From: Malacoraja senta
Lineage: Eukaryota
Direction of reading: 5' to 3'
Assembly (NCBI GenBank): GCA_038087875.1
Contig: CM075996.1
Span: 3,536,001 to 3,600,000, forward strand
DNA: 64,000 nucleotides
The notes under the pieces were generated by a model that was given only the letters and a program-made list of their open reading frames with translations, was not told where the DNA came from and did no database searches. Shown here one piece after another: positions 2,115 to 64,000 of the stretch. Position 1 is the stretch's first letter, and the number at the start of each line of letters is the position of its first letter. The position numbers and the translations under genes were made by a program.

Positions 2115-2536
2115 TTGACTGAGTCTGAGTGTGTGTAACCACTGCTGCTGCGAGCAAGATTTTCATTGTACCTGTATCTCACCGTACTTCTGCATATGAC
2201 AATAAACTCGACTAAACTTGCTGTTCAATCGCATTATGACTGATACTTGACCTTATTTTCCTGATGGATTCATTTATTCCTTGACTATATATACTGACTA
2301 TATCCAGACATATATATGTCTGAGGAAAGGTCCCGACCCTAAACATTGCCTGTCCATTTCCCCCAGAGATGCTGCCTGATCCACTGAGTTCCTCCAGCAC
2401 TTTGTATTTTACCTGAATTTATCCAGTTGGGCAAACCAGATCTTGGGGGAGGTGGGGGTAGAGAATTCCAAAGATTTACACCTCTGAAGAAAGAAAGTTC
2501 ACCTCAACTCTATCCCAAATTCCCTCGTGACATATC

Positions 2537-2697
2537 AATAGACAATAGACAATAGACAATAGGTGCAGGAGTAGGCCATTTGGCCCCTCGAGCCAGCACC
2601 GCCATTCAATGTGATCATGGCTGATCATCCCCAATCAGTACCCCGTTCCTGCCTTCTCCCCACATCCCCTGACTCCGCTATTTATAAGAGCCCTATC
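2537..2697 (-). mobile_element. CR1 3' end fragment
   Basis: (GACAATA)n tail plus the same 3' UTR as the 1725 copy. Confidence 0.85.
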
Positions 2698-2811
2698 AGG
2701 TGGGAGTGAACAAATGTCTCTTTTCACGTTGGTTCCTTTGGACTGTGATCACCAAGGCCGAGATACTCTATCCCAATGCTGCCCAAAGTATATTCCCCAC
2801 CAAGCACAGGT

Positions 2812-2825
2812 GTTGCCATGGAGAC
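2812..2825. promoter_or_regulatory. RFX X-box motif GTTGCCATGGAGAC
   Basis: Near-perfect match to the palindromic RFX consensus GTTNCCATGGNAAC, in non-repeat sequence. Confidence 0.45.
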
Positions 2826-3444
2826 GCTATTTTATTAGAAAACCTTCCTCACGCACAAAGTAAGGAAAAATATACCACGTATGAACACTTAGTGACAGGC
2901 ACCCGACCACCGTTCAGTAGTCAAGGAATTAAAGCAATGATAATCATTATAAAATACTCCCCCCCCCCTTTTACTATTTGTCAGTTGTGTCTCCCACCTC
3001 TGTCAGATCTCCAAATCCTATCCCAGAGAGCTGAGCTCAAAAAGTGGCTGCCCATCGAAAAATAAAATGCAGATGCTGCAACACCTGGCAGTCGGGCAGT
3101 AAGTGGGGAGGGAGGAACAGAATCCGTTCTTCTCACTTCACAGATGCTGTCTGACCTGCTGTGCATTCTCAGTATTTCTCCCCTCTTTTTATTTAATCGT
3201 AGCTGGTATTTCAGGTCCATGTTCCAAGGGAATGTAGAACTTAGAACAGTCCAGGAACAGGCCCTTCGGCACACAATGTCTACGCTGCTGTTGATGCCAA
3301 GGTAAACTAATCATCTTTTTGGTGCCTTCCCTCACAGTGGAAAGTGTTGATTCTGCTGTTGGGGGGGACGTTCATGTCGAATCCTATAGTGTATTGTGTC
3401 TTTTTTATTAGAAAAAGACACAATACTTGACCTTGACCTGAAAG

Positions 3445-3773
3445 CCTGGCCACAAACTCTCTGAATCACTTCCCTCTGGAAGGCGACTCCGGACTGTCAA
3501 AGCTGCTACAGCCAGACATAAAAACAGTTTTTATCCACGAGTAGTTGCTCTACTCAACAGCCAAAAATCTGTAGCCTCCCTTTGATCTGGTATTTTGTTG
3601 GTTCACATGCTTGATCAATGGTGTTTTATCATTAATGTTTTATTATTATTAATGTTTAGTGTTTTCTGAGTCATTCGTAACTGTCACTGTATGTCATGTT
3701 GTTACTTGTGGGCGGAGCACCAAGGCAAATTCCTTGTATGTGAATACTTGGCCAATAAACATACTTACTTACT
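3445..3773 (+). mobile_element. Rex1/Babar-like LINE 3' fragment
   Basis: Translates PGHKLSESLPSGRRLRTVKAATARHKNSFYPRVVALLN (the LPSGRR...NSF.P C-terminal signature); AATAAA followed by a (TTAC)n tail; same 3' end recurs at ~31510-31625. Confidence 0.75.
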
Positions 3774-3805
3774 TTTTTCTTCTTATTTATTTTATATGGA
3801 TGTAT

Positions 3806-5515
3806 AAGTCTTCCCCCTTATCCTTAAACTGTGACCCCTTGTTTCATCTCTGGCCTTTGTTCAACCATCTGCCAAGCAAAACCCCCTCACCTGTATCCAC
3901 CTATCAGTATAGACACAAAAAGCTGGAGTAACTCAGCGGGTCAGACTGCATCACTGGAGGAAAGGAATAGTCTTCAGAGTCTGAAGAAGGGTCTCCACCC
4001 CAAAACGTCACCTATTCCTTTTCTCCAGAGATGCTGTCTGACCCGCTGAGTTACTCCAGCTTTTTGACTCTATCTTCGGTTTAAACCAGCATCTGCAGTT
4101 CCTTCCGACACACTCCACCTATCACTTGCCAGGCTTTCAGGACATCGCAAGTCATAATTCAGACCACGCGTTACTTTCAAATTGCAGTCACTGTAGCATC
4201 ATAAAGTGCATCAGCCAATGTGCACACTGAAAGATCCCTAAAATAGCTGTGCAATAATAACCAGGAAATGGCCTGATTGATAAATAAATGGTACCCAGGA
4301 TTCTGGGGAGAATCTCCTTTTGTCTTTAGGTGGTGCCATAGGATTTTTCAAGTCCATCCCACCCAAGAGAGAAGATGGTCCTTGTTCGGGCTTTTCATCT
4401 GACAGCTGTCTCTCTGGGCTGCTGCATTCCAAGATTTGAGGGCAAACTTAGATTGTTTTCTCAAATTTGGATTTTTTTTCTCTGTAAAGCACTTTGGCTT
4501 CAACATGATTTGATTTAAAAGTGCTATATTAATAAAAATTACTTACTACTTACTTACTTGCTATCTCTGCCTGCACGTGATCCATATCACTCTATACCTT
4601 GCCCATCCATGCGCCTATCTAAAAGCCTCATAAACGTCACTATCCTATATGCCTCTACCACCATCCCTGGCTGCACGCTCCGGGCAACTTATTCAGAGGG
4701 TGAGCTTTTTTTCACCCTCTGCGTAAAAAACTTGCCCTGCATTCAACTTTGCCCTGCTCTCCTTAGAAGGTTTTCTCTGTCTACCCTATTTAGCTCTCTC
4801 ATAATATTATACATTTCTATTTAGTGCCCGGCATTCAAGAGAAAAAAAATCCAAATTTGAGAAAACAATCTAAGTTTGCCCTCAAATCTTGGAACGCAGC
4901 AGCCCAGAGAGACAGCTGTCAGATGAAAAGCCCGAACAAGGACCATCTTCTCTCTCGGGTGGGATGGACTTGAAAAATCCTATGGCACCACCTAAAGACA
5001 AAGGGAGATTCTCCCCAGAATCCTGGGTACCATTTATTTATCAATCAGGCCATTTCCTGGTTATTATTGCACAGCTATTTTAGGGATCTTTCAGTGTGCA
5101 CATTGGCTGATGCACTTTATGATGCTACAGTGACTGCAATTTGAAAGTAACGCGTTGTCTGAATTATGACTTGCGATGTCCTGAAAGCCTGGCAAGTGAT
5201 AGGTGGAGTGTGTCGGAAGGAACTGCAGATGCTGGTTTAAACTGAAGATAGACTCAAAAAGCTGGAGTAACTCAGCGGGTCAGACAGCATCTCTGGAGAA
5301 AAGGAATAGGTGACGTTTTGGGGTGGAGACCCTTCTTCAGACTCTGAAGACTATTCCTTTCCTCCAGTGATGCAGTCTGACCCGCTGAGTTACTCCAGCT
5401 TTTTGTGTCTATACTGATAGGTGGATACAGGTGAGGCGGTTTTGCTTGGCAGATGGTTGAACAAAGGCCAGAGATGAAACAAGGGGTCACAGTTTAACGA
5501 TAAGGGGGAAGACTT
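3806..5515. repeat. Long inverted duplication: arms 3806-4483 and 4838-5515 (678 bp each), 354 bp spacer
   Basis: Arms are reverse complements with only a few substitutions; mirrored ORFs 3831+/5272- and 4238-/4889+ are near-identical. Confidence 0.95.
4889..5187 (+). mobile_element. Ancient Deu-domain SINE remnant (SacSINE1/AmnSINE1-like); mirrored at ~4135-4432 on minus
   Basis: Resembles the Deu domain as I recall it (cagatgaaa..., aaaatcctatggcacca, tgtgcacattggctg, tacagtgactgcaatttgaaagta). Confidence 0.6.
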
Positions 5516-5787
5516 TTAGGACCGAGATGAGAATTTTTTTTCCCACACAGAGAGTGGTGAATCTGTGGAATTCTCTGCCACAGAAAGTAGTTGAGGCCAG
5601 TTCATTGGCTATATTTAAGAGGGAGTTAGATGTGGCCCTTGTGGCTAAAGGGATCAGGGGGTATGGGGAGAAGGCAGGTACAGGATAGTGAGTTGGATGA
5701 TCAGCCATGATCATATTGAATGGCGGTGCAGGCTCGAAGGGCCGAATGGCCTACTCCTGCACCTATTTTCTATGTTTCTATGTTTCT
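5481..5787 (+). mobile_element. CR1 3' fragment, second subfamily with (TATGTTTC)n tail
   Basis: GGGGTCACAGTTT...GAATTCTCTGCCACAG...TTTAAGAGGGAGTTAGA; tail TTTCTATGTTTCTATGTTTCTA; interrupts a PLE 3' UTR. Confidence 0.85.
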
Positions 5788-6211: not shown

Positions 6212-6525
6212 GGTTAGCTGCCTAAAATTGGAGGATTCAATGACCATACAGTTGAGTAGTAAATTACCCAAGTGAGATATGAGGTGTTATTCCTCCAGTT
6301 TGCGTATGGCCTCACACTAGCATTGGAGGAGGCCCAGGACAGAAAGGGCAGTATGGGAATGGAAGGGGAAATCAGGCAGGCCTTGGTGGATTGAGCCTAA
6401 GTGTTTTGTGAAGAGGTTGCCTAGTCTACGCTTGGCCAGACCGATGTAAAGGAGGCCACATTGGGAGAACCAAATGCAGTAGATGAGATTAGAGGAGGTC
6501 CATGTGAACCTTTGTCTCACCAGGA
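6212..6525 (-). pseudogene. Penelope-like element GIY-YIG endonuclease remnant
   Basis: ORF 6317..6748 contains SSNLIYCIWFSQCGLLYIGLAKRRLGNLFTKH...HSHTALSVLGLLQC, the IYCI...C..LYIG GIY-YIG signature of PLEs. Confidence 0.85.
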
Positions 6526-6798
6526 AGGGCTGCTGGACTATTCCCCACCTCTGTTCCAGGTTTCTATCCATTACTACAATCAGTCTGATGAAGGGTCCCC
6601 ACCTGAAACGTTGCATTCCTATGTTCTCCAGTATTGCTGCCTGACCCACTGAGTTCTCCAGCATTTTATGTATTTTATTTATTAATAGAACAAAGTCTGA
6701 CAAAGATAGACACAAAAAGCCAGAGTAACTCAGCGGGTCAGACCACATCTCATGAGGAAAGGAATTGGTGATGTTTCCGGCAAGGGCCCTTCTTCAGT

Positions 6799-6826
6799 CT
6801 GAAGAAGGGTCTAGACCCGAAACGTC
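6799..6826 (+). ncRNA. Minimal type I hammerhead-ribozyme-like motif (PLE-associated)
   Basis: CTGAAGA-A-GGGT-CTAG-ACCC-GAAA-CG-TC: CUGANGA and GAAA boxes, 4 bp helix II, palindromic ACGU at helix III, GUC cleavage triplet; helix I is weak. Confidence 0.65.
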
Positions 6827-6870
6827 ACCTATTCCTTTTCTCCATAGATGCTGTTTGACCTGCTGAGTTA

Positions 6871-8976: not shown

Positions 8977-8979
8977 AAG

Positions 8980-18347: not shown

Positions 18348-18890
18348 TGTGTCGGAAGGAACTGCAGATGCTGGTTTAAACCAAAAATAGTCACACAATG
18401 CTGGAGTAACTCAGTGGGACAGGCAGCATCTCTGGAGAGAAGGACTGGGTGACGTTTCAGGTCGAGACCCTTCTTCAGACTAGTCTGGGGAAATGGAAAC
18501 GAGAGATATAGACGGTAATGTAGAGAGAGATATAAAACAAATGATTGAAAGATACGCTAAATAGTAACGATGATAAAGGAAGCAGGCCATTGTTAGCTCT
18601 TTGCTAGGTGACATCGGGTATCTGGTGTGACTTGGGTAGGGGAGGGATGGAGGGAGAGGGAGTGCAGGGGTTACTTGAAGTTAGTGAAATCAATATTGAT
18701 ACCACTGGGCTGTAAGCTGCCCAAGCAAAATATGAGGTGCTGTTCCTCCAATTTGCGATTAGCCTCATTCTGACAATGGAGGAGACCTAGGACAGAAAGG
18801 TCAGTGTGGGAATGGGAAAGAGAATTAAAGTGTTTGGCAACTGGGAGACCAGGTAGATTCAGGTGGACTGAGCGAATGTGTTCAGCAATA
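18348..18890 (-). mobile_element. 5'-truncated Penelope-like element: GIY-YIG C-terminus, 3' UTR, hammerhead-like motif, terminus
   Basis: ORF 18671..18913 AEHIRSVH..PGLPVAKHFNSLSHSHTDLSVLGLLHCQNEANRKLEEQHLIFCLGSLQPSGINIDF; ~13 bp TSD ATTAA(A/G)TTATTGT (18338-18350, 18891-18903). Confidence 0.88.
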
Positions 18891-20399: not shown

Positions 20400-20830
20400 T
20401 TCAGTTTAGTTTAGGGATACACCATTGAAACAGGCCCACCCGTGGCCCTCCGAGTCCACGCCGACTATCAATTCTTGTTCACATTAGAGGATAGACAAAA
20501 ATGCTGGAGAAACTCAGCGGGTGAGGCAGCATCTATGGAGCGAAGGAAATAGGCAATGTTTCGGGTGGAAACCCTTCTTCAGACATTAGAGGATTATGTT
20601 ATCCCACATTCGCATCCACTCCCTGCTCACTTGGGGCAATTTCCAGAGGTTTTCAATTAACCTGCAAAACGAGCATGTCTTTGGGATGTGGGAGGAAACG
20701 GGAACACCTGGAGAAAAACCCACACGTCCCAGGGAAAACGTGCAAACTCCACACCAACAACACCCGAGGACAGGATTGAACCCAGGTCTCTGGCGCTGTG
20801 ACGAAATGGCTCTACCAACTGCCCCAGTGT
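20400..20830 (-). mobile_element. V-SINE (HE1-like) with a nested PLE-terminal insertion (20493-20582, 12 bp TSD ACATTAGAGGAT)
   Basis: (AAACT)n tail on minus, V-domain, B box GGTTCAATCC on minus at ~20773-20782. Confidence 0.75.
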
Positions 20831-30305: not shown

Positions 30306-30900
30306 AGTGTAGGAAGGAACTGCAGATGCTGGTTTACACAGAAGATGGACACAAAATGCTGGAGTAACTCAGCGGGGCAGGCAGCATCTCTGGAGAGAAG
30401 GAATGAGTGATGTTTCGGGTCGAGACAATTCTTCAGACTGAGAGTCAGGGGAGAGGGAGACACCGAGATAAGGAAGGGTAAGGTGTGAAAACGAGACATC
30501 AAAGGAGATGAAGTTCAAGGAAAAAGTAGAATTGAACATTGTTAGCTAGCAGAAGGTGAAAACGAAGCAAACAGAGATAAAATGTAATTCAGGGGACAGT
30601 CAGATGGGTCGGAGAATTGGGAAGGGGAGGGGATGGAGAGAGAGGGATAGCAAGGGTTACTTGAAGCTAGAGAAGTCAATGTTCATACCGCTGGGGTGTA
30701 AGCTGCCCAAGCAAAATGTGAGGTGTTGTTCCACCAATTTGCGCTGGGCCTCACTCTGACAATGGCCCAGGAAGCTCAGGACAGGAAGGTCAGTGTGGAA
30801 ATAGGAGGGGGAGTTAAAGTGTTGAGCAACCGGGAGATCAGGTAGGTATAGGTTTAGGCGGACTGAGCGGAGGTGTTCAGCGAAACGATCGTCGAGCCTG
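30306..30900 (-). mobile_element. 5'-truncated Penelope-like element
   Basis: Same layout as 18348-18890; 13 bp TSD CGAACCTAC(A/G)CAA (30293-30305, 30901-30913). Confidence 0.85.
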
Positions 30901-32884
30901 CGAACCTACGCAATTACGCACTCACACATACAAGCTAAATCTACAAAGGGCTTTTTGGTTAAATATAGTTTGAAACATTAACTTAAGCTCCACAGCCACG
31001 TGAATGCATTAAACACCAGGGCCTTGTGATTAATATACATGCCCCATACCCGTGGAGTGTTAGGAGGGAGCTATGTGGCACTGATACAATTAAAGTGCAA
31101 TGTTCCCCACCAAGACCTTGGCTAAAGACTAAAGACTTCTCCTCAGGACTCCTTTTAAAAAGAAGCCAGCTGTGGAGTATTATAATTAGTGCTCCCATCC
31201 CTTTGCCTTTGCTTTCTTCTCCGTGACTATTTCTGTCGGGTTTTAAGGGTTTCTTTCTTTTTAAATAGAGCAAGAGGCTGGGAGTGTCTGCTCCCCATGA
31301 GAGAATGAGGGAGCATTGGTAAAATGTAATCATCAGCTTGGGCATTTGCAGCTATCCTGTAGCTCAAAATATTGGATTTAGTAATCACCCAGGCTGAATT
31401 TTCTAATATTTAATTTAGAGATGCAGCCTGGAAACAAGCCCATCGTCCCACCAGGTCCACGCCAACCATCGATCACCTGTTCACACTAGTTCTATTTTAT
31501 CCCACTTTTGGTGTTTTCTGAGTCATTCGTAACTGTCACTGTATGTCATGTTGTTACTTGTGGGCGGAGCACCAAGGCAAATTCCTTGTATGTGAATACT
31601 TGGCCAATAAACTTACTTACTTACTTTCTCATCCACTCCCTGCACAATTTTACAGAGGGCCAATTAACTCACAGACCCACATGTCTTGGGGATGTGGGAG
31701 GTAACCGGAGCACCCGGAGGAAAACCCACGCAGTCACAGGGAGAACGTGCAAACTCCACATAAGCAGAACCCGATGTCAGGATCGAACATGGGTCTCTGG
31801 CGCTGTGAGGCAGCAGTTCTACCAGCTGCACTATTGTGCTGCCCTGAATATTATTCATTTTCAACCATTCTGTGTCACCCCTTCTGACGTTACTCCCTCC
31901 ACCATCCCCATGTTCCCACAGATAAGATTTAAACAATCCACAGATTAATGATTTACTAATATTTCAAGATAATATTTTTAGTAATATTTTGACCTGTTCA
32001 ATGTTTCAGATGTTCAACCTAGTTCACATTCTTTTGAATCCAAATATAATTCGCAATATTTCTAGATCAACATTAACATTATTTCCTAGATTTGAGATGT
32101 TCATTCTGTACCATAGAAGTCTTCATGAGTCTGTAATACTTCTAGATTCTACAAAGGCCGGAATATTTTATTTTTCAAGAGTCAAGAATGTTTAATTATT
32201 GTATGCCCTGGAAATGGAACAATGACATTCTTGTGTAGGAAGGAACTGCAGATGCAGGTTTACACCAAAGATAGACACAAAATGCTGGAGTAACTCAGTG
32301 GGCCAGGCAGAATCCCTGGAGAAAAGGAACAGGTGAAGTTTCGGGTCGAGACCGTTCTTCATTCTTACTTGCCTTTACGGGCACATTAACGCAATAATTC
32401 AATAAATAAATATTCAACAATACAATATATTATCAGTAATACTCAGTAACCCGACCGCTGAAGTAGTGCGCAGTGTGACCAAAACCAAAGTCCATAGTAG
32501 ATCGTTGCTGAGGTTGGCGTGTGGTTTGGGTTCCCATTACAATATTTATTGCTCTTTAATATGAGTGCACGAGTGATGTTTTATTGTTTGTGGCATTTCT
32601 TGATTTGAGATGTTCTTCCTGTGACAGTTCTGAAACTAGATGCTACGATGACAGTATTTTTAGATGAGATCTTCCATTGTGAATGGTCCCTTGGGTCGAA
32701 CCTGTAACGTTACCAATCTTGAGGTCCGAGCTAGTTTGTAAACCACTTCAAGCACTGAGATGCGTAGCCTGAGGGATCTCCAATTATGAGGTTCAATCGG
32801 AAATAGATAGACTTTAGAGATGCACCGCGGAAGCAGGCCCTTTGGCCCACCGAGTCTGCGTCGACCAGCGATCAACCCGTACTA

Positions 32885-33292
32885 TGTGTATGAAGGAACG
32901 GCAGATGCTGGTTTAAACCGAAGATAGACACAAAATGCTGGAGTAACTCAGCGGGACAGGCGGCACCTCTGGAGAGAAGGAATGGGTGACGATTCGGGTC
33001 GAGACCCTACTTCAGACTGATGTCAGGGGAGAGGGAGATAGATAAGGAAGTTTAAGGTGTGAAACATGACAAAGGGAATGGAGATCAAGGAAAATGTAGA
33101 ATAGATCATTGTTAGCTGGGACAAGGTGACAAAGCAAACAGTGATAAAAATGTAGTCGGTGAGTGGTCAGGGAACTGGGATGGGGAGGGGATGGAGAGAG
33201 AGGGAAAGAGCAAGGGTTGAAGTTAGAGAAGTCAACGTTCATACCGCTGGGGTGTAAGCGGCCCAAGCGAAATATGAGATGCTGTTCCTCCA
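32885..33292 (-). mobile_element. 5'-truncated Penelope-like element nested in a V-SINE (~32810-33510)
   Basis: EEQHLIFRLGRLHPSGMNVDFSNF within ORF 33012..33512, followed by 3' UTR and a hammerhead-like core. Confidence 0.8.
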
Positions 33293-33579
33293 TTAGCTCT
33301 ACCTCACACACCATGGACAATTCCGAATTTTTTCCAAAGACAATTAACCTACAAACCTGTACGTCTTTATAGTATGGAAAGAAACAGCAGCACCGGAGGA
33401 AACCCACATGGTCACAGGGAGAACGTGCAAACTCCGTACAGGCAGCACCCGTTGTCAGGATCGAACCCGGGCCTCCAGCACTGTAAGGCAGCAGCTCTAC
33501 CACTGCGGCCACTGGCCACCCCTCAATTTGAAATGTTTATTCATTTTAAGTGTGCGTAGGTATTAGATTATACTTACAT

Positions 33580-33905: not shown

Positions 33906-35577
33906 GAATGCGTAATACAATTATTGTGTAAAAATATCTAGATTTATCTTTTTTGTAATTTGCAATTTACCAATTTACGATGTTCAGCCTACAGTGTTTT
34001 CTATAGTAAGTGTCCCTTAGGGTGTACAGTAACTTCCAATTTTCAATGTGATATCTGTACTTCTAAATGCAAGCAACTCATTGGTATAAATTTAGTTTTT
34101 AGATTTAGAGATACAGCGCGGAAAGAGGCACTTTGGCCCATCAAGTCCGTACCGACCAGTAACACAATCCTACACTAGGGACAATTATATCTACCAAGCC
34201 AATTAATCTGCAAACTTGTACGTCTTTGGAGTGTGGGAGGAAACTGAAGTTCTCGGCGAAAAGCCGTGCGGTCAAATGGAGAACGTACAAACTCCGTACA
34301 GACAAGCACCCGCAGCCAGGATCGAACCCAGGTCTCTGGCGCTGTAATGCAGCAACTCTACCGCTGCGCCACTCGTCCAGAAATCTGGAAGTTGTTTCCA
34401 GATTTGGTCTACCTGTAATATTTTATCATTGTTAGCAGTCTATGACAACTCCACAGGTGCCAAGATTCACCTGCAGTGTCTTTTTAGATTTGAGGTTTAA
34501 TCTCCCAGCATGTAAACTTTCTGGACACAATGATAAATGGGCACTACCTCCGAGATGAGACATGCAGGAAAGCACTCGTCGCAGATGTGAAACTCAGCCC
34601 ATGATATCTGTAATATTTCCACCTTTGAATGTGATATATCTACAGTTGTGATGTTTGACTTGGTAATTTTTTTTATTTTGAGATTTTCTATGTAATATTT
34701 CTATATTTGGGTTATTCAGTTATGGAATTCATAGCCACAGACGGCTGTGGAAGCAATGTCAATGGATATTTGCAAGACTGAGATTGACAGATTCTTGATT
34801 AGCGAGGGTGTCGGGGTTTTCCTTGATCAGACTTTGCTGGCTTTATCTTGCGCTAAACGTTATTCCTTTATCATGTATTTTACACACTGTAAATGGCTCG
34901 ATTGTAATCATATATTGTCTTTCTGCTGTCTGGATAGTGTGAAACAAAAGCTTTTCACTGTGCCTTGGTACATGTGACAATAAACTCAACTGAAACTGTT
35001 ATGGGACAAAGGCAGGGGAATGGGGTTGAGAGGGAAAGGTTGATCAGCCATGATGAATGGCAGAGTAGACTTGATGGGACGAATGGCCTAATTCTGCTCC
35101 TGGAATTTATGAACGTGAATTATATAATTCCCTCAGGAAATCTCAGGATTTTGAAAGGATATGAGGACAAATATTATAAGGTCGAGATGGCATATGTTTG
35201 CTTTTCGTTGATGCCATTCCCATGCAATTGCTTCCCTTAGTCTACTGAGTGTTAGAGTTTATGGTTCTTCCAGGCACAGTCAAGAAAGCTTTGGTGATTT
35301 ACTGAGGCCACCTGTGTGGGTAGTACACAGTGCTGCCACAGTGTGTCAGTGGTGGGCAGCCAGTAGATCTTCAGGGTGTTTGAAGGGTCTTTCACTCAGT
35401 GGTCTGCTCTGTCCTCACTTAGGCTTCATTATGTGTAGGAAGGAATTGCAGATGCTGGTTTAAACATAAGATAGACACAAAAAGGCTGGAGTAACTCAGC
35501 GGGACAGGCAGCATCACTGGAGAGTAGGAATGGGTGACGTTTCGGGTCGAGACCCCTTCTTCAGACTCGATGACTTC

Positions 35578-35775: not shown

Positions 35776-36007
35776 TATGGTCGTTCACAGGGCAGTGTTG
35801 GCTTCTCAGGTCTGAAGAAGGGTCTTGACTTGAAACGTTACCCATTCCTTCTCTCCAGAGACGCTGCATGTCCCGCTGTGTTGGTCCAGCATTTTGTGTC
35901 CCATCTTCAGTGAAAACCAGTATCTGCAGTTCCTTCCTACACACTTGTCTTCTCAGGTGATGCGTACAGAGGAGGATGTGATGATTAAAAGTAATTGGAA
36001 GGTTGGA

Positions 36008-36510: not shown

Positions 36511-38087
36511 TGTCCCCCACACAAGTTGCCTGGTACTTGTTCGTCGAGAATGTAACCTGAGACTTAATATTGCCCAGTTCCTGCTGTATGCAGGCTCAGA
36601 CTGCCTCACTTGCTGAGCCACTAAACAGCAGACAGCTAAAAGCATTCTTACAGCAGAACCTCTCCATCACTACCTTTGGCCTCTTCCAACAAGGACGCCC
36701 TGTCTTTGGGCTTCTCCACCTGTCCAGCTGCACCTGAAGAATGTGTAGGAAGAAACTGCAGATGCTGGTTTAAACCTGAAGATAGACGCAAAAAGCTGGA
36801 GTAACTTAGCGGGTCAGACAGCATCCCCGGAGAAAAGGAATTGGTGACATTTCGGACCGAGGCCCTTCTTCAGTCTGAAGAAGGATCTCGACTCGAAACG
36901 TCACCTATTTCCTTTCTCGAGGGTGCAGCTGAGGAATCCCAGCCAGAGCTCAGATTTCAACTATTCCATCTATTAGATTTCTCAGTCTGAGATATTGACT
37001 CTATAAAGGCACTACACTAGTTTTTCAATGTTTGTTCACTTTGTCAGTGGACTTAAGGCAGAGATTGATTGATGTTTGGACTTTGTGAATCAGAGGATGT
37101 TGGATTAAGCAGAAATATGGATTTAATACAGGATCACTTGATGATCAAATTAAGGAAGCAACATAGCCTGTTTCAGTGCCTATCTCTGAAGTTTTCACGT
37201 GGTCATCAAGTCAGAGTTATAACGCAATAAATCGTAGAAACAGACCCTTCGGCCCATCATGTCCCTGCTGACCTTCGTGCCCATCTACACTAATCCTATT
37301 TGCCTGCATTAGACCCGTATCCTTCTATGCCTTGTCTATTTAAGTGTCTGTCTAAATGTTTCTTGTATGTATTAATAGTGACTTATTCCAGCACCATCTC
37401 CAGCAGTGAGTTCCAGATATCAAACGTCTTTCTGCGTAAAATAAATTTTCACCTAAAATTGAAGATGGACACAAAAAGCTGGAGTAAATAACTCAGCAGG
37501 ACAGGCGGCATCTCTGGACAGAAGGAATGGGTGATGGTTTGAGCCGAGACCCTTCTTCAGACCTTAAATGCCCTTCAACACGCCTTCTGATAATGTTAAA
37601 CCTATGCTTTCTGGTTGCGAAACAGGTGGCACGCTATTGCTGGCAAAAAAAGCAGATTTTCAAAGAAAAGCTGGTTTTCATCCTGATTACTGGGATTAGT
37701 TTAGTTTAGAGATACAGCGCAGAAACAAGATTCAAGGTTCAAAAGGGTTTATTGCCATCACAGCCGTATACACACTGAGATAGCGTTTCCCCAGAACCTC
37801 TGTGCTACATAGAACACAATTGGACAACATGCTACATATATAGATAATACTATGCTATACACATGGTGCATACACACTGAGATAGCAATGAGATAGCGTT
37901 TCCCCAGAAACTCAGTGCTACATAGAACACAATTGGACAACATGCTACATATATAGATAATACTATGCTATACACATGGTGCAAAACCTTCCTAACTAAA
38001 GTGCAACGAAGTAAATAGCAAACGTACAAAACAGCAACACAGGACAGTAGACAACAGTGCAACACAGTGCAATGTACACAAACCTAT

Positions 38088-38477: not shown

Positions 38478-41400
38478 GGGGGGGGGGGGGGGTATTCAGA
38501 TCAGTCCCTGAGCGTTGAGTCGGATGGCCTGGGGGAAGAAGCTGTTGCATAGTCTGGATGTGAAGGACCATATGCTTTGGTACCTTCTGCCAGATGGGAG
38601 GGGGGAGAAAAGTTTACGTGAGGGGTGGGTGGGGTCCTCCGCAATGCTGTTTACTTTGACCAGCGATCCCCGTACATTAGCCCTGTCCTACACACACTAG
38701 GACAATTTACAATTTTATCAAGCCAATTAGCCTACAAACTTGTAAAGTCTGGAGTGTGGGAGGAAACTGGAGCACCCAAAGAAAATCCACACAGCTCACG
38801 GGGAGAGCGTACAAACTCCGTACAGACAGCACCCGTAGTCAGGATCGAACCCGGATCTCTGGCGCTGTAAGGCAGCAACACTACCCGCTGTGCCACCATG
38901 CCGGGTTAATAGTTTACCAACAAGGTTCCCAGGGGGACATGACACACACTGCTGTAGGTTTCATCTGAAGAAGGGTCTCGATCAGAAACGTCGCCCATTC
39001 CCTCATCCAGAGACGCTGCTCGTCCCGCTGAGTTACTCCAGCATTTTGCGTCTATCTTCAGTTTAAACCAGCGTCTGCACTTCCTTCCAACACATTGCGT
39101 CTGCTGTAGGTTTCGACTGGCACCATAATTTAGGTTCTTTACAGCGGCTGGACCTGCTGGGGAGAGCAAGGCGGTGGGTGTAATATTGGAAGCTCAAATT
39201 CTGTCAACCTGTGTAAGAACAACTGATAAGTTCCCCACAGAGTCACAGCCATTTCCCGCTGCCATGCCAGTCAGTGAGAGATTAGGTCTGATAAATTTCC
39301 ATATTTGGGCCTCTCGTGAATATTCAGCATTCGTAGGTTTTAGGTGGTGAGTCTGTAACATTTCCAGGCATGCGATCTTCATTGGTTTGTAATATTTCCA
39401 GAAATGAAATGTTTAATCTGTGATAATTTATGTGAGATAAGCAGCTGCAACAATTTGCTTTGTGCTATTTTCAGATTGGTGCCGATCCACCTATAGTATT
39501 ATGCTTGTAGATTGAAGATGAGCCACATACTAATTCTAGATCTTCGGGATTTTCAACCTGTGGTATTTCTTGATTTGTAAAAGTCCATGTATTTTTTACA
39601 CGCCCCTGATGTGCGTGAATCTGAAGAAGGGACTCGACCCGAAACGTCACCCATTCCTTCTCTCCAGAGACGCTGCCTGTCCCGCTGTGTTGCTCCAGCG
39701 TTTTGTGTCCACCTTTGTTTTAAACCAGCACCTGCAGTTCCTTCCTACACTGGATGTATGAGAGATACGTAGAGTCATAAACCATGGAAACAGGCCCTTT
39801 GCCCCAACTTGCCCACAACGACCGGCGCGTCCCATCTACACTAGCCCCACCTGCCTGCGTTTGGCCCATTCCCCTCTAAACCTCTCCTATCCATGTACCT
39901 GTCTAAATGGTTCTTAAAATGTTGCGATAGTCCCTGCCTCAAATACCTCCTCCGGCAGCTCGTTCCATACACCCACCAACCTTTGTGTAAAAAAGTTATC
40001 CCTCAGATTCCTATTAAATCTTTCCCCCCTCACCTTAAGCCTATGTCCTTTACTTCTCGAATCCCCTTCACTTGGGAAAGAGACTCTGTACGTGACATGA
40101 AACATGTTGATATCTGTAGTTTTCACACCTATGAGGTGTATGCATGTGTGTGTAACGTTTCTGGAATTTAGATATTAGTTAGATATTTAGATGCCATCAG
40201 GTTGAGGGGCTGACAAGTATTAACAGGTAAGATGATCATTGTCCTCTGTATGTGTTTCAGCATAGATATAATGGGCTGAGATGCCTGTTTCCGTGTTCTG
40301 TTGCACTATAACCACATCTTTAGGTTTCCCTGTATGTTGCATAATATTGTGCAGCTCTTTCATCGTCACTGGTTATAAATCCTGGAACTTGCTGCCCAAC
40401 AGTGCAATGGGAGCACCTTCACCACTTGGTCTGTAGCTATCAACGCCTTGGTGATTTTAATGCTTGTCTGGATACTTCTAAGATTTTGTGACATCCTCTG
40501 TCTCCCCCCACCTTCTCACTACAGTGAGGGTGGTGAATCTGTGGAATTCATTGCCACAGACGGCTGTGGATGCCAAGTCAATGGGTATTTTTAAGGCGGA
40601 AATTGACAGATTGTGCATTAGTAAGGGGGAGAAGGCAGGAGAATGGGGTTGAGAGGGAAAGATAGCTCAGCCATTATTGAATGGCGGAATAGACGATGGG
40701 TTGAATTGCTTAATTCTGCTCCTGGAATTTATGAACATGTGTTCCAGGATTCCAAATACCCTCTGGGTGAAAGAAATTCTACTTGCATTCAGCAGAACTA
40801 TTGCCTTTGAACGTTGGGATGAGGCAGTTAAACGTTGGACATCTAGCAGGATGCACATAAGTATTATTGATCGCATATTGGCCCTCATCGGAACGTGCTC
40901 CAGAACTCAATTGTGTAGGAAGGAACTGCAGATGTGGGTTTAAACTGAAGATACACACAAAATGCTGGAGTAACTTAGTGGATCAGGCAGCGTCTCTGGA
41001 GAAAAAGTATTGGGTGACGTTTTGGGTCGGACTGCAGTCTGAAGAGGGGTTCTGACCCGAAGCGTCACCCATCCTTTTTCTACAGAGACGCTGCCTAACC
41101 CGCTGAGTTACTCCAGCACTTTGTGCCTATCTCCAGGACTCAATTAGACACAAAATGCTGGAGTAACTCAGCGGGACAGGGAGCATCTCTGGAGAGAAGG
41201 AATGGGTGACGTTTCAGGTCGAGACCCTTCTCTAGACTGAGGGCCAGGGGAATTTTCTTCACTTCCCTCCACAGATACTGCTCCATGGGTACTACAGCGG
41301 AGTGCTTGTAGGTGCTCCAGAACTTGCTGCTCAGGCAAGCGTTGGTTTATTATCTGGAGGGTGCTGATTGGATTCATGGTAAGCGCATTGCAATCAGTCT

Positions 41401-44291
41401 CTTCCTGAACATGCAGACAGACAGACAGAAAATGACTCTGAAGAAATGAATTTCAATCTCCAGGTGCTTTCTATGCTTTGACCTCCTGTTTCTGGATTAA
41501 TGGTCCAAGCCTCAAGTAACTTGACCTCTGCACTGGCATTCTATTTTTCTTCCCCCTTTCCCCACTCCCTGTCAGTCTTTCTCTCCATCTGGTGGCAGGT
41601 ATGAGCATCCCCCCCCCCCCCCCACCTCCTCCCACCATGTCCCAGTTTTGATTTAGTCTGTGGCACCAACTCGTGAGAAAACGCTGTTGTTAATTTCAAG
41701 CGCGGTGACTTTAATTTTTCTCTTCTTTTCTTCCACCAGACATCCCGTAACAAATAACATCACAGTTAATCCAAAGGCTGAAGCCGCTAACTCAGTACCA
41801 GCCACTGACTGTCCCTGATGGCTGTCTGCTGGCTGAATTTAAGCAATGCAACAACACACAGTCTGAATTTAAACAACACACCATCCAGAGGGAATCTGAT
41901 GCGAGAGAGAGGTTAAAGAAATCCAGGGAGAAGTTATCCCAGCTGGCTCAAGCCTCGAGGTATTTCATTTGATTCCCCTCTCTCCCTCCCTCTCCCAGCT
42001 CTCCGCACAATATACATTATTTAAAAAAAATAAATGAATACCTGCAAAGTGAAAGACGTGCTCGGAACACCATCGGCTCCGAGAGGGATTCCTGCGATGT
42101 TGTGAACCTTTTGGGGGTTTTAGTGCTGTAGCAGGCGGAAGTGGGGGAATTTGTGAAGTTTCGCACTCTTGTTACTGAAGGCAGGGAGCTGAGCACGCAG
42201 TGTGCGGGAGGGAAGCCTGGCATTGATATAACGCCCTTCACACACTATGGATTCCCAAGTGCCTCGCAGCTGGTTATTTCTGACGTCTTTAAAACACAAA
42301 AAAAAGACACAAAGTGCTGGAGTAACTCAGCGGGCCAGGCAGCCTCCATGGAGGACACAGAAACATAGAAACATAGAAAATAGGTGCAGGAGTAGGCCAT
42401 TCGGCCCTTCGAGCCTGCACCGCCATTCGATATGATCATGGCTAATCATCCAACTCATTATCCCATCCCTGCCTTCTCTCCATACCCCCTGATCCCTTTA
42501 GCCGCAAGGGCCACATCTAACTCCCTCTTAAATATAGCCAATGAACTGGCCTCAACTACCTTGTGTGGGAAGGAACTGCAAATGCTGTCTTACACCGAAG
42601 ATAGACACAAAATGCTGGGGTAACTCAGCTGGACAGGCAGCATCTCTGGAGAGAAGGAAAGGGTGATGTTTTGGGTCGAGACCCTTCTTCAGGCTGAGAG
42701 TCAGGGGAAAGGGAGACTAGAGATATGGAAGGGTAAGGTGTGAAAATGTCTGATCAAAGCAGACGGTGATCAAGGAAATGTAGAACGGTTCATTGTTGGC
42801 TGAGGGGAAGGTGACAACGAGGTGTACAATCAGTGAAATTGGAGAATGGGGGGGGGGGGGGGGGGTTACTGTCACCACCTCTTCCTGTTTGTTTTTCCCA
42901 CCAACCACAATCAGTCTGAAGAAGGGTCCCAACCCAAAACATCATCCACCATGTTCACCAGAGATGCTGCCTGACCAGCTGAGTTACTCCAGCATCTGCA
43001 GCCCCTCGTGTCTACATATTTCTGAAGTGTAGTCACTGTAGTAATGTAGGCAAAGACTAGACAGGTCTCCCCGCAAGATGGGGGTGAAATTCTTCAAGAT
43101 TCAAGATTCAAGAGAGTTTATTGTCATGTGTCCCTGGTAGGACAATGAAATTCTTGCTTTGCTTCAGCACAACAGAACATAGTAGGTATTGACTACAGAA
43201 CAGATCAATGTGTCTATATACCATTATATAAATATATACACACATGAATAAATAAACTGATCAAATGCAAATAACAGATAATGGGCTATTAATGTTCAGA
43301 GTTTTCTCCCTGGACTTCTGCCTAATAGTGCTTACTTTATTCTACTTCTGCTGTGAGTTCACACCACAAGTCGTCGCAGTTGCCTGGCTGCCATTTGTTA
43401 CTCTAGACTATTCCAACACTCCCCTGACCTCTCGTGTGAAGAAGGGTCTCGACCCGAAATGCCATCCATTCCTTCTCTCCAGAGATGCTGCCTGTCCCGC
43501 TGAGTTTACTCCAGCATTTTGTGTCTAACTCCCCTTGACTTCTCCCATTTGCCCTCCATAAACCTGGGCCTCTCAAAATCTTTTGCTGACAATGTCCTAA
43601 CTGGATCAAGTCCTGATTCTCCATCACCATGTATTTTGTGACCTGTACTGGCTTCACATTAAGCCATTCCCCTCTTGGACTTGCACAACCCTGTCTCTGG
43701 AATCACTTCTATTCTTGTAAAACAACGAGATCTCTGCACAATTCGCTGAAACTCTCGCTCAATCTCTGGATTTAACCTTTGGGAACTTTTTACATGTTCT
43801 GCCGAGATTTCAACTTTCTCTCTGTCTTTCTGCCCTTAAGATGTCCTTTAAAGCCTTGACCTTCAATTAAGTTTTCTGCAATCCGTCCCCGAATGGTTCA
43901 CCGTTAAATGTTATTTTATTATGCTGCCCCTTCAAGGTGTTAGCTCTGTTACGATTGTAGTGGAAATCGAGATTAGTGGGTGGACCCAAAAATTATCTGG
44001 AGTAGCTCAGCGGATTGTGAAGCATGCCTTGAGAACATGGATAGGTGACATTTCGGGTTTGGAACATCACCTGTGCATGTTCTCCAGCGATGCTGCCTCA
44101 TCTGCTGAGCTACTCCAGCATTTTGTGTCTTTCCTTGGTGAACCAGCATCTGCAGTTCCTTGTTCCAACCAAACATTTCCAGTCCATTGTTTTTCCACCT
44201 TTTGTTTCACAACCATTCACAACATGGTGTGATCCTGGTCTAAGTTAAAGGGACTCAATATGACCCAGCAACAAAGCTCAATATATGAGCG

Positions 44292-44514
44292 TTTAAGAAG
44301 GAACTGCAGATGCTGGAAAATCGAAGGTAGACAAAAATGCTGGAGAATCTCAGCGGGTGAGGCAGCATCTATGGAGCGAAGGAAATAGGCAACGTTTCGG
44401 GTCGAAACTCTTCTTCAGACTGAAGAAGGGTTTCGACCCGAAACGTTGCCTATTTCCTTCGCTCCATAGATGCTGCCTCACCCGCTGAGTTTCTCCAGCA
44501 TTTTTGTCTACCTT
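44292..44514. mobile_element. Palindromic PLE-derived insertion with two opposed hammerhead-like cores
   Basis: 13 bp perfect TSD CAATATATGAGCG (44279-44291, 44515-44527); ~95 bp arms around axis 44419; + strand core CTGAAGAAGGGTTTCGACCCGAAACGTT at 44420-44447. Confidence 0.9.
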
Positions 44515-45132
44515 CAATATATGAGCGGTATACCTTGGCTGTACCCAGTGGTTTATATCGGCAGAAAGGCACCAGTACACATCGTTTCTTGCCGTTGGTG
44601 TCTATGGCAGATCGCCACACTATAAGCTGCTTGAGGACCTGACTTCCCAATTTAATTAATACATTTCACTTTTTTAGACCTGTAATATTTTTGCAATACT
44701 AACAATTCTAAAAATTTGAAAATCTAGTTTAAACTTTTTTGAGGTGCTGATACACTGTGCTCTCACAAAAAAATTCACCAGCTCAGTCACCAAAAAGAGA
44801 GTCTCGACCCAAAACATCACCTATTCCTTCGCTCCATAGATGCTGTCTCACCCGCTGAGTTTCTCCAGCATTTTTGTCCACGTCCCAAAGAGGAGATCAG
44901 TTCAATTAGTTTATCGTTCAGTTTATTGTCACATGTGCCGAGGTACAGTGAAACGCTTTTGTTGCGTGCTACCCAGTCAGTATAAAGGCAATACATGATT
45001 ACAATCGAGCCATTTACAGTGTATAGATAGATACACGATAAGGGAATTGCGTTTAGTGCAAAGTGAAAATAGACACAAAATGCTGGAGTAACCCAGCGGG
45101 ACAGGCAGCATCTCTGGAGAGAAGGAATGGGT

Positions 45133-45160
45133 GACGTTTCGGGTCGAGACCCTTCTTCAG
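45133..45160 (-). ncRNA. Minimal hammerhead-ribozyme-like motif (consensus copy)
   Basis: Reverse complement is CTGAAGAAGGGTCTCGACCCGAAACGTC, within a short insertion with 11 bp TSD TAGTGCAAAGT (45054-45064, 45168-45178). Confidence 0.65.
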
Positions 45161-45516
45161 ACAGATGTAGTGCAAAGTAAAGCCAGTTAAGTCCGATCAT
45201 AGATAGTCCGAGGGTCTCCAATGAAGTAGATAGTGGTTCAGTTGTTGGTTGTTTTTTAATTGCAAGCTCTGTGGTTTTGTGGTCCTGTGATATCGGAGAT
45301 GAAACCAAAAGCTTTGATGTCAGCTGTGATTCAACTTGTGGTGCTCTCATCAGGGGGGGGTCACAGGTTCAGATCTCACCCTGGGGATGTGAGAACATGA
45401 TGCAGGCTAATGTACCGAAGCAGAAGAGAGTGCTGCCCGTGTCCATGGGATTTTAAACCATCAGCCGCTTGTGAAAGTGGCCGAAGGGGTGGTACGATGG
45501 CGCAGCGGTAGAGTTA

Positions 45517-59700: not shown

Positions 59701-61781
59701 ACTCTATGACTAATGGGACGGAGAAGAAAGCTGGCAGGCAACTGGAAGATTATGGGTTGCCCCTGTTGACATTGCATTCCTTCTTATTATCGTTATGTCT
59801 ATTAACGGGAGCAATTCCTGATGGTTGTTTGAAGAATTGATTCCATTGACCGAATCTTCCTGGTCTCCTTTGAAGCTGCATTTGGACAATCGTTCCGGCT
59901 GGTTCCTGGCTCTGGGATCTGTGGCAGCGAGAGATGGATATAAAAGGACAGTTTCGTAGAATTCGACCATGTCAGCAATTGTGGCAGCGATCTGTTGATA
60001 AAGGTGTCAATGTGCTAATTAAGAAGCTTTATCTGGGGCTGGGTGTGAGGGGCTGAGGCCAGGAAAGCTGGATCGAAGAGCTGGCAATCTGTTCAGTTCT
60101 ATAATTAAAAATACTTGAATCTCATTCAAGAGAAATCTGACTTGAATTACAACAGGTTACAAAATATCTGAAGGCACGATGTCGCAGCGGTAGAGTAGCT
60201 GCCTTCTACGCGACGGGGACCCGGGTTCCATCCTGACCACAGGTGCTCTCTGTGCAGAGTTTGTACGTTCTCCCCGTCACCTCCGAGATCTTCGGTTTCC
60301 TCCCACACTCTAAAAACGCACAGGTTTGTAAGTTAATTGGCTTGGTATAATTGTAAATTGTCCCTAGTGTGTGCAGGATAGTGTTAGTGTGCGGGGATCG
60401 CTTGTTGGCGTGGACTCGGTGGGCCGAAGGGCCTGTTTCCGTGCTGTATTTCTGAACTAAACCATAACAAAGGGCATAGGAATTCAATCAGACTGCACCC
60501 TTTATCTCAGCCGCATGCGAATGGAAAAGTATATCAGACGGTGTGAAATATGATTAATATTGATATTGGCGTGGGTCTATTATCGATACAAGTTGTGAGA
60601 TACAGTGAAAACCTGCCAATTGAATCAGATCATACGATACACGAGTACAATGAAGCCACACACACGTACAGCAGATAGTGCAAAGAGAACAATTCCAGAC
60701 TTCAGAATATGGTGTGACAGCATTGTCACGTTCCAGTTCCAGAGAAATAGTCCAAGTGTCGATAGGGGTGGGGGGAGGGGGTCAGATTTGTCAGCCACAC
60801 TTCATCATTTTGTCTATATTTCCTTTCCTTCTAAAGGAAACAGAAACTTCAAGCTCTGTTTTAATTCTTTAAATGTTGGCCTTTGCTGATTGACTATCGG
60901 ACTCTCTCATGCGGTTTTCTCAAAGCACCAGAGCACAAATCACGCTTTATGCCTTTCTCGGTTTGTCTTATTTAGATTTACGACCCTGGCTTCAGATTGA
61001 ACTAAATCTCTCCCTATCTTTACAAAACAATTCTATTATATGATCATCACTGTGTCCCTGAGGGCTGCTTAACTACCAGATCATCAATTAGCCATTTCTC
61101 ATTGCTCAGTTGTAGGTCTAAAGTGACCCTGTTGCCTCAATGGTGTATCAACATACTGATCTGGGATAACCGTCCATTATACTATCCATAAATTCATCAA
61201 TCACGCTCTTAACGCCAATTTATTTTGCCCGATCAATGCTGATTAAGATCCCCATGACAATTGCACTCCTATTTTTACATGCAACTCTTAAGTTCCTGAT
61301 TTATACTTCAACATACGGTAGCACTACAGGTTGGGGATCTTTCTACAATGTCCACTGATGTTTCTGCACCCTGCTACACCTCAGCTATACCCACCACGCG
61401 ACTCTGTCTACTGTCTCAGTGTACCACTGCTATACACTTGTAATGCATCTGAGATTCCTATCTGATATGTATGCAAGTGCTTGTGTATAGTGATACTTGT
61501 ACTGAACGGTACGGTGACAGCTAACCGGGTCCGATCCCGACTACGGGTGCTTGTCTGTACGGAGTTAGTGCGTTCTCCCCGTGACCTGCCTGAGCTTTCT
61601 CCAAGATCTTTGGTTTCCTCCCACACTCCAAAGACATACAAGTTTGTCGGTCATTTGGCTCGGTGTAAATGTAACATTGTCACTAGAGTGTGTAGGGTAG
61701 CGTTAACGTGCGGGGATCGCTGGTCGGCGCGGACTCGGTGGGCCGAAGGGCCTGCTTTTGTCCATCGCGTCTAAAAGGTAA

Positions 61782-62102
61782 TAGCCCTGTCCCACAGTAC
61801 GAGTTCATTCCAAGAGCTCTCCCGAGTTTAAAAAAAAATCAAACTCGTGGTAAGCACGGAGAATGAACGTAGCGGGTACGTCGGAGCTCGGGGACGTCTC
61901 TTGGAGCTAACGGCAGGTACTCGGGAAGACTCGCTAACGGCAGGTAAGCACGGGAAGACTCGTGAAGATTTTTCAACATGATGAAAAATGTCCACGAGAG
62001 CCCCGAGTACCGACGAGCGGCCATTACCGTAAATCTCCGAGTTCGAATCAGGGCAAATTCGGGAGAGCTCTTGGAATGAACTCGTACCGTGGGACAGGGT
62101 TT
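61782..62102. mobile_element. PIF/Harbinger-like MITE, variant TIR subfamily (gap-truncated copy at 53772-53990)
   Basis: TIRs ..CCCTGTCCCACAGTACGAGTTCATTCCAAGAG / CTCTTGGAATGAACTCGTACCGTGGGACAGGG..; TAA TSD (61779-61781, 62103-62105). Confidence 0.85.
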
Positions 62103-62599
62103 TAACTATGGTGGAATATATAATTCTCAACCTTGGTCACCTTGAAACAAAACTGCTGGCAGAAGATCAGATCATATCCATTTATTTCTACTTGAGCCAT
62201 TATGTCACATACCTTGTTAAGAATGCAATGTGCATTTGGATAAAGAGCCTTCAATTTTGTCTCTCTCACTGGGAGTTATTTTCCTCAGCATCACCTGTGT
62301 GTGGGGTTGGTGCTGTTCAGAGTGCCTGAGGTTGGGAGATGGGGCCCTAAGTGCTTCCTGTGGCCGGTTAGTGTCTTCACCGCTGCTTATGGACGGTTGC
62401 TATTGTCCTCAGTACCGTCGGTGGCTCCGAATTACTGCTCTCTTGAGTGACCTTGGCTTGGAACTGTGCCCTTGGCCATGCGGCCGCGTGGAGATCATGT
62501 CTGTGAATGGATACTAGATCTCTGAGCACCGTCTGTACAGGGAGTCTGCACCGTCTGTGTGTGGGTGCCAGCCGTGTCTTGAGATCAGCACCGCATGTC

Positions 62600-63730
62600 T
62601 CTCTGTTTTAGTGTAACCCGCTGCCAACTGTGTCTGGAGGTCGGCAGCGTCTGTGTCTCGGGTTTGGGGGTGTCTGTGTCTGGGGGTCTGTGCTGTCGGT
62701 GCCTGGGTGTCTGAACTGTCTGTGTCTGAGTGGCACTGCTGGTGCTGTCTGTGTCTGGAGCTCGGCAGTGTCTGTGTCTGGGAGGGTGTAGTCTGTATCT
62801 GGGGGGTGTCTGGGAGTGTGTAGTCGTGTCTGGGGGTATTTGCTGTCTATGTCTGGCGGTGTGTGCTGTCTGTGTCTGGGAGTGTGTGCAGTCTGTGTCT
62901 GGGGGATGTCTGGGAGTGTGCAGTCTGTGTCTGGGAGTGTGTGCAGTTGATGTCTGGGGGTATTTGCTGTCTGCGTCTGGTGGTGTGTGCCGTCTGTGTC
63001 TGGGAGTGTGTGCCATCTGTGTCAACGGACAATAGATGCAGGAGTAGGCCATTCGGCCCTTCGAGCCAGCACCGTCATTCAATGTGATCATGGCTGATCA
63101 TCCCCAATCAGTACCCCGTTCCTGCCTTCTCCTCATATCCCCTGACTCCGCTATTTTTAAGAGCCCTATCTAGCTCTCTCTTGAAAGCATCCAGAGAACC
63201 TGCCTCCACCGCCCTCTGAGGCAGAGAATTCCACAGACTCACCACTCTCTGTGAGAAAAAGTGTTTCCTCGTCTCCGTTCTAAATGGCTTACCCCTTATT
63301 CTTAAACTGTGGCCCCTGGTTCTGGACTCCCCCCAAGATCGGGAAGATGTTTGGGGAGTGTGTGCCATTGGTGTCTGGGCAGTGTGTTTCATCTGAGTCC
63401 AGGGGTGTGTCCCATCTGTGATTGGGGGTGTGCGCTGTCTGTGTCTGGAGGTCTGTGCCATTTGTGTCTGCGGATTGGAGGCATCCTTGTCTGGGAGTCT
63501 GCGTCATCTCTGTCTGGGGAGATGGCACCGCTGGTGCCTTGTGTATCTGGGGTCTGCTCCATCTGTGTCTGTGGGTACCGTGGGGCGTCTGTGTCTGGGT
63601 GTCTGTGCCTGGTGGCCAGCTCCGTCTGTGCCTGTGGGTCTGTGTTTGCAGTCACTGTTCACCGTCTGTGTCTGGGTCAGATAGCCGGCTCCGCCTGTGT
63701 CTAGGTGGGGCACTGTCTCTGTCTGGACGT
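62600..63730. repeat. Degenerate (GTGTCTG)-rich minisatellite with a CR1 3' fragment inserted at 63028-63352 (-)
   Basis: Repeated CTGTGTCTGGG units; CR1 ORF end within 63108..63461. Confidence 0.85.
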
Positions 63731-64000
63731 CGGGTGCTGTCTGCCCTGAGTGCGGGTGGTGGGTGGCAGTCAGCAGGCGAAGGAGGGAACTGCAGATGCT
63801 GGTTTGCACCGAAGATAGACACAAAAAGCTGGAGTAACTCAGCAGGACAGGCAGCATCTATGGAGGAAAAAGATGGGTGATGTTTTGGGTCGAGACTCTT
63901 CTTTAGTCAGATGATTCAATTCAGGTGAGAGGGGAAAGGTTTAATAGGAACCTGAGGGCAACCTTTTCACACAGAGGGTTGTGGGTGTATGGAACGAGCT

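Follow-up and report, generated by a model that had tools for sequence, protein, structure and literature searches.

Penelope-like elements (PLEs) have been known since 2014 to carry hammerhead ribozymes at their ends, on single truncated copies as well as in opposite-strand pairs; their minimal type I consensus is CUGANGAH-G..C-GAAAN-palindrome-U-H, and several PLEs have a helix I of 2 bp and an extra base after A9 (PMC4209133). These minimal hammerheads cut poorly in vitro, and weakly as dimers (PMC4209133); for Xenopus PLEs, eight of nine hammerhead dimers are reported to show no cleavage. For PAc Poseidon, a PLE of the green anole, the published account describes a hammerhead that needs protein for cleavage and uncut RNA as the main substrate, with no reads beginning or ending at the cut site in the data available from it, and the hammerhead was dispensable for insertion in the one reconstituted system (PMC11167929). 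The standard anatomy of PLEs comprises partial tandems, an inverted 5′ copy and a 30–40-bp tail, and a CX2-5CxxC linker before the GIY-YIG domain marks the Neptune or Nematis clades (PMC8557442). Retrozyme-like arrays, described as non-LTR retrozymes, were reported in one chondrichthyan in 2026 (bioRxiv 10.64898/2026.07.22.740005). Here we analyse a 64,000-nucleotide (nt) stretch of Malacoraja senta DNA (assembly GCA_038087875.1, contig CM075996.1, positions 3,536,001 to 3,600,000; hereafter the window), in which short hammerhead-bearing units are dispersed. The units are the 3′ end, or pseudo-long terminal repeat (pLTR), of an autonomous Neptune-type PLE whose open reading frame (ORF) contains reverse transcriptase (RT) and GIY-YIG domains. 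These PLE end pieces, 100–135 bases long, were probably inserted by the PLE enzyme as short cDNAs copied from uncut RNA.

The hammerhead is of an already known PLE kind; what is unusual is its abundance and how informative the copy ends are. We found no report of this PLE family, of its copy number or of the pile-up of 5′ ends described below in the open literature, a search that did not cover Repbase, Dfam or subscription journals.

Hammerhead units as ends of a Neptune-type PLE

A profile built from 13 window copies gave 62 matches in the window at E≤0.01 and none in three shuffled controls. With a second profile, and once duplicate junctions were discarded, 57 distinct units remained; 35 of them span the hammerhead region, in line with the 35–40 copies counted by eye in an earlier note on this DNA. 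The units and related PLE pieces discussed below are as follows.

2316..63910, both strands: the whole dispersed set of 57 distinct units (62 first-profile matches, duplicates included)
45058..45164, minus: solo unit that stops at the first 3′ end site, with an 11-nt target duplication; its hammerhead motif (45133-45160) is intact
35809..35942, plus: solo unit with tail and a 10-nt target duplication (35802-35811 / 35949-35958); its C3 lies at 35812
38963..39093, plus: solo unit with tail; 14-nt target duplication
20476..20585, minus: solo unit belonging to the second subfamily, with a 12-nt target duplication
39617..39750, plus: solo unit with tail; core letters intact
35433..35568, minus: solo unit with tail; core letters intact
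44291..44521: two units head to head, minus 44291-44423 and plus 44415-44521, meeting in a palindrome at the hammerhead 5′ edge
6700..6870: two units head to head, minus 6700-6801 and plus 6794-6870, also meeting at the hammerhead 5′ edge
36743..36941: head-to-head pair whose minus arm carries the C–G copy 36846-36873
18349..18889, minus: 5′-truncated PLE with GIY-YIG C-terminus (18677-18889), pyrimidine-rich 3′ untranslated region (UTR), hammerhead (18451-18478) and tail
30307..30902, minus: 5′-truncated PLE with GIY-YIG C-terminus (30663-30902), 3′ UTR, hammerhead with damaged helix II (30409-30436) and tail
32886..33293, minus: 5′-truncated PLE with the last 25 codons, 3′ UTR, hammerhead with G8 changed, and tail
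42563..42696, minus: unit after the shared PLE 3′ UTR, without remaining ORF
6224..6535, minus: GIY-YIG fragment of the same PLE family, its own terminus lost

As the earlier note had proposed from the first two of these truncated elements, the unit forms the 3′ end of GIY-YIG-bearing fragments: the PLE protein fragments at 18677-18889(-), 30663-30902(-) and 33219-33293(-) each stop approximately 200–230 nt upstream of a motif in the same orientation. Pfam gave no match on three short window fragments, and longer copies were required. With the GIY-YIG tail (18671-18907) as query, a first look returned 83,645 candidates in the genome, and intact copies were reached by walking stepwise up the ORF from this tail. 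One of them, L145, consists of a unit, an ATG 163 nt after C3, an ORF of 1,221 amino acids, a 115-nt 3′ UTR and a second unit, so that its two motifs (at 2223 and within 6163-6260) bracket the ORF (2386-6051). Three further copies (L141, L142 and L144) are tandem arrays with a period of 3.87–3.89 kb and 99.3–99.6% identity. The ORF has the order RT, CX4CxxC linker, C-terminal GIY-YIG, with a proline-rich insert; the L145 protein was assigned to Atlas clusters with RT, GIY-YIG and animal HTH at 0.98, and a PDB sequence search with its RT–endonuclease region gave no matches. Direct or inverted pLTRs, partial tandems and a 30–40-bp tail, as expected of Neptune-type anatomy, are all found among the copies.

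By sequence and position, in both pLTRs and in agreement with the published consensus, the motifs are the minimal type I hammerheads of PLE termini that the earlier note took them for; their catalysis is predicted. Its three clean copies, 6799-6826(+), 44420-44447(+) and 45133-45160(-), carry the strict motif at exactly these positions. The features it had entered as caveats, one extra A and a helix I of 2 bp, are indeed present, but are published traits of PLE hammerheads rather than defects (PMC4209133). All core letters are kept in 16 of the 57 window units, seven of which also keep the G10.1–C11.1 pair and the palindrome, and a descriptor demanding a 4-bp helix II was passed by nine window copies.

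Across a larger set of 410 copies, the cores CUGANGA and GAAA, U16.1 and H17 are the majority state in all five clusters of at least four copies, which take in 282 copies (the other 128 fall in smaller clusters). The unpaired base between A9 and G10.1 is A in 97% of copies. The G10.1–C11.1 pair is G–C in 301/410 and G–U in 67/410, the G–U lying at a CpG, and the palindrome at 15.2–16.2 is ACGU, with CG in 226/410 and the CpG-decay forms CA and TG in 139/410. Helix I has two pairs, G–C and U–A or U–G, the third being A–C. The two large subfamilies differ by tolerated changes alone (the loop, U–A to U–G twice, and C17 to U), which lends weak support to compensatory change in the stems.

Checks that the earlier note had suggested came out negative on the inserted copies. 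No window hammerhead reached the gathering score of the Rfam models. Two-sided changes in helix II did not exceed shuffles, either in 30 window copies (348/500) or in the 410-copy set. The C–G pair that the note had read as a swap at 36846-36873 is present, but the same copy has a G–U pair and a broken palindrome, and C–G at this position, found in 5/381 copies, is not commoner than chance (Fisher p=0.16). GAAA/U16 was no better kept than the flanks (3.7% versus 4.8% mismatches, p=0.16; the 5′ core, having served for anchoring, was excluded), and G12 was lost at its CpG in 75/271 copies. After insertion the copies decay neutrally, without selection on the hammerhead, which would be conserved in the source elements. 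Minimum free energy folds of three units gave z from -1.35 to +0.17, the minimum-energy structures preferring non-hammerhead pairings. We also observed that unit columns 47–99, after the hammerhead, are conserved as well as the core and fold into a hairpin whose base lies close to the first 3′ end site; this region is a candidate signal for binding of the PLE protein.

The massive amplification claimed from the window was borne out genome-wide. In the 1.94-Gb genome the exact 28-mer has 18,728 occurrences and its reversed control none. A sample of 80 evenly spaced 10-kb stretches from large contigs (799 kb) contained 327 profile matches, 257 of them at ≥40 bits, against none in three shuffles; 58 passed the descriptor with the 4-bp helix and 40 a stricter letter test. 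Extrapolation gives an estimated 0.6–0.8 million units, or 4.0% of bases, and an estimated 100,000–140,000 motif-intact copies, figures that may run high because exact 28-mers in the sample numbered 12 against 7.7 expected. The abundance of PLE hammerhead units in this genome stands out as extreme. It implies that a vertebrate genome holds about 100,000 ribozyme-like motifs, many of them in host transcripts, though most likely inactive as monomers.

Copy ends and the route of insertion

The 3′ ends cluster at two sites about 35 nt apart, at profile columns ~98–104 and 135–136; in a related organism they lie at L145 positions 2315-2318 and 2351. Target duplications of 9–16 nt flank many units, as independent insertion, also claimed in the earlier note, would have it. 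Duplications of at least 8 nt directly at the 5′ edge were found for 44/171 solos, against 1.8% in shuffled pairings; near duplications numbered 36/168 (control 0.3%) and far ones 18/168 (control 6.8%). In the 33 cases with a duplication of at least 9 nt, the unit starts at -4 to 0 of C3 in 23 and has 5–10 extra bases in 10.

At the 5′ side, most copies begin at -4 to 0 of C3. The hammerhead 5′ edge is reached by 167 of 247 random copies, whereas ORF residue 1200 is reached by just 23 in a protein-based check of the same 799 kb. The 113 anchored edge-reaching copies comprise 47 solos, 32 inverted copies, one tandem and 33 that run into the PLE 3′ UTR, with a median of ~270 nt further; 80 thus have no recognisable PLE sequence upstream of the edge. 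Contig depth in the related organism steps likewise at the hammerhead edge, although this is depth and not copy number.

The cleavage site, in contrast, is hardly ever an end. For the 22 bases that follow it, the first 100 exact matches were read by eye in one region of C1: none starts at the site, and a handful begin a few bases upstream at rearranged junctions. In a set of 535 copies, drawn from the window, from the 80 evenly spaced stretches and from 40 more 10-kb stretches picked for the exact motif, eight start within 1 nt of the site, where ~10 would be expected from neighbouring columns. Since starts just ahead of the motif prevail and starts at the cut site are nearly absent, the integrated templates were likely uncut RNA.

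The units are joined head to head far more often than tail to tail (102 versus 14 pairs, with an arm at the edge in 77), and the junctions at 44415-44423 and 6794-6801 are perfect palindromes centred on the inverted repeat TCAG-T-CTGA. Direct tandems account for none of the 23 anchored window copies and 7/429 anchored copies overall. At L162 and L172 (1500-1600, minus), a larger repeat has taken up one unit and spread with it. The junction, with a common 13-mer upstream, recurs in 6/100 matches; a spliced exon was considered as the source of this 13-mer and rejected, since it reflects one unit inside another repeat (two of the six examined).

The edge could instead be a point at which the RT stalls, is released or primes itself on a longer RNA of the same origin, at the TCAG-T-CTGA repeat, the hammerhead fold or the pyrimidine tract behind it. 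The palindromic junctions fit this, self-priming having been proposed for head-to-head PLE palindromes (PMC3846280). A second, smaller accumulation of 5′ ends, at the 3′ foot of helix II (column 27, 23/535 copies, neighbours 2–5), also favours it and means that structure may affect ends; this peak could be RT pausing, hairpin deletion or alignment trimming at a decayed CpG. However, edge copies are mostly solos and not foldbacks (47 versus 32), and the edge behaves differently in ATG-bearing copies. Of 18 ATG-bearing copies examined, five start further downstream and 13 reach the upstream edge, and only two of these 13 stop there, against 80/113 terminal copies (p=0.00016). The edge is thus not a fixed barrier; this points to two template classes, one of which ends there. 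We therefore regard stalling or self-priming as unlikely, though the strongest of the alternatives.

The earlier note had suggested a non-autonomous, retrozyme- or SINE-like (short interspersed element) family. As a self-propagating family, the short unit would be transcribed from its own copies and would borrow the PLE enzyme. Short units do outnumber ORF-bearing copies, they have fixed ends with target duplications, and a minor subfamily consists largely of short copies (23, against 2 long). Elsewhere in the genome, at C1:28902521-28907156 (L279) and C1:256829057-256831841 (L280), we observed pLTR pieces with the hammerhead repeated in tandem (13 matches at 384 bp, 11 at ~275 bp); these arrays are retrozyme-like and offer natural dimer substrates. 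Yet the 182 short and 59 long (ORF- or UTR-bearing) copies share their main haplotypes, no column separates them (1/96 at p<0.02), and the nearest neighbour of a copy is a long one equally often in both groups (0.38 versus 0.35); the copies, besides, are dispersed or head to head, and direct tandems are as rare as given above. Short copies are thus not a separate lineage, and the self-propagating family is improbable.

Least credible is a splice acceptor at the edge with short copies made from spliced RNA: a pyrimidine tract and CAG, one base before C3, stand there in all subfamilies, and the intron of D. virilis Penelope ends at helix I (PMC4209133), but target duplications lie directly against the unit, which keeps its CAGT or AGT and has no exon before it, several subfamilies lack, by eye, a GT donor close to the stop codon, and RNA reads of the related organism, with low UTR coverage, contain no splice joint.

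Two template classes and no separate short lineage speak for run-off cDNA whose RNA template begins just before C3. In this reading, the transcripts would have a common 5′ end 2–4 nt before C3, at an initiator-like TCAGT, which we take to resemble the initiator consensus. The PLE protein would nick DNA and start reverse transcription inside the RNA at the two 3′ sites, as described for the anole PLE (PMC11167929). Priming in the 5′ unit would run off the RNA 5′ end and give solo units, priming on both nicked strands would give head-to-head pairs, and multimeric read-through or circular templates would give the long and partial-tandem copies. The hammerhead would act at another step, probably cleaving slowly, as a dimer or with protein help. 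The specific proposal that transcription starts 2–4 nt before the hammerhead, and that priming in the 5′ pLTR yields strong-stop-like cDNAs which integrate directly, is more tentative than insertion from uncut RNA as such.

Several observations weigh against this account. A second template class has to be assumed, because 11/13 ATG-bearing copies pass the supposed start. In one polyA run of the related organism, 8,155 reads showed no pile-up of RNA starts or stops; 87% of these reads run on into other sequence, both strands are covered about equally, and the 5′ half of the ORF is almost bare. No single untemplated G of the cap type was found at the 33 duplication-defined junctions; a cap-derived G had been considered, as G is enriched before AGT (11/17), and was rejected, the duplication-defined junctions showing short re-primed pieces of helix II. 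In D. virilis Penelope, an intron separates the hammerhead from the published start, which lies ~125 nt upstream of it. The classing leaves out 54/167 edge-reaching copies that were unanchored, and ~90 nt give low power to diagnose lineages. Finally, the matches of the L145 ORF to RVT_1 (E=5.9e-6) and GIY-YIG (E=0.002) in Pfam are both below the curated cut-offs.

If run-off from uncut RNA is correct, a by-product of PLE retrotransposition has become one of the densest ribozyme-bearing repeats known (~100,000 intact motifs, 4% of the genome) from a template never cut by its ribozyme, and the copy ends would let the PLE start site and the two template classes be read from the genome. The copy ends say that the integrated templates were uncut at the ribozyme, with copies stopping just upstream. 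The genome offers hundreds of thousands of natural insertions together with young intact elements, and models of a start site, a barrier and a circle become directly testable.

A second ribozyme-bearing repeat and local duplications

Distinct from the PLE units, a dispersed repeat of ~190 nt at 36110-36299(-) is headed by a ribozyme like that of hepatitis delta virus (HDV), matching the Rfam CPEB3 model with 36.6 bits (cut-off 35). All ten copies read (L031-L040) start within 1 nt of the first G of the ribozyme; they end in an AAG-rich tail, and most have target duplications by eye. The genome holds 237 exact 28-mers of it and 1,774 search candidates. Identity with the CPEB3 intron was rejected, as no CPEB RRM or ZZ exon was found on the contig and the sequence is multi-copy. 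From these features the repeat looks like a ribozyme-headed SINE, possibly dependent on RTE, a link that we presume; no partner among long interspersed elements was found in the fetched loci. The open literature searched holds no report of this repeat, which is possibly more novel than the PLE hammerhead finding, and its resemblance to the CPEB3 ribozyme of mammals may be relevant to the origin of the latter.

The window also contains a 680-bp inverted duplication (3803-5518, 98.7% identical) with two units per arm. Two 98%-identical duplications of 2.3 and 4.3 kb (47728-53990 versus 54191-62000) flank a gap of 200 N at 53991-54190; these are possibly both alleles assembled in tandem.

Comparison with known systems

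PAc Poseidon (Frangieh 2024, PMC11167929) likewise has two internal RT start sites that define its tail. Its hammerhead overlaps the start codon, whereas here C3 lies 163 nt upstream of the ATG, and the available part of that report does not mention 5′ ends piling up at the hammerhead edge. With the Neptune clade (PMC8557442), our element shares the C-terminal GIY-YIG, the linker, partial tandems, the inverted 5′ copy, the tail and heavy 5′ truncation. It differs in its long ORF (1,221 amino acids with the proline-rich insert), and the assignment is made from features, the linker being common to Nematis.

The PLE hammerheads of PMC4209133 resemble ours in consensus, in the extra base after A9, in their presence in both pLTRs and in occurring mostly as single motifs on truncated PLEs, with some opposite-strand pairs. 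The Acropora Neptune row there has the same 4-bp helix II layout, and the 2-bp helix I found here is at the short end of the 2–5 bp PLE range. Supplement file 2 of that paper, as far as available, has no shark, skate or chimaera rows; the vertebrate maxima given are ~4,000 and 9,000 motifs, against an estimated 100,000–140,000 passing the descriptor here.

Animal non-LTR retrozymes (PMC7229834; bioRxiv 10.64898/2026.07.22.740005) are also PLE-related, hammerhead-bearing and non-coding, and reach up to 120,000 motifs in the axolotl. They are defined as tandem repeats, mostly with canonical hammerheads and with circular RNAs, whereas the window copies are dispersed or head to head and bear the minimal motif; it is the 275–384-bp arrays found elsewhere in this genome that resemble them.

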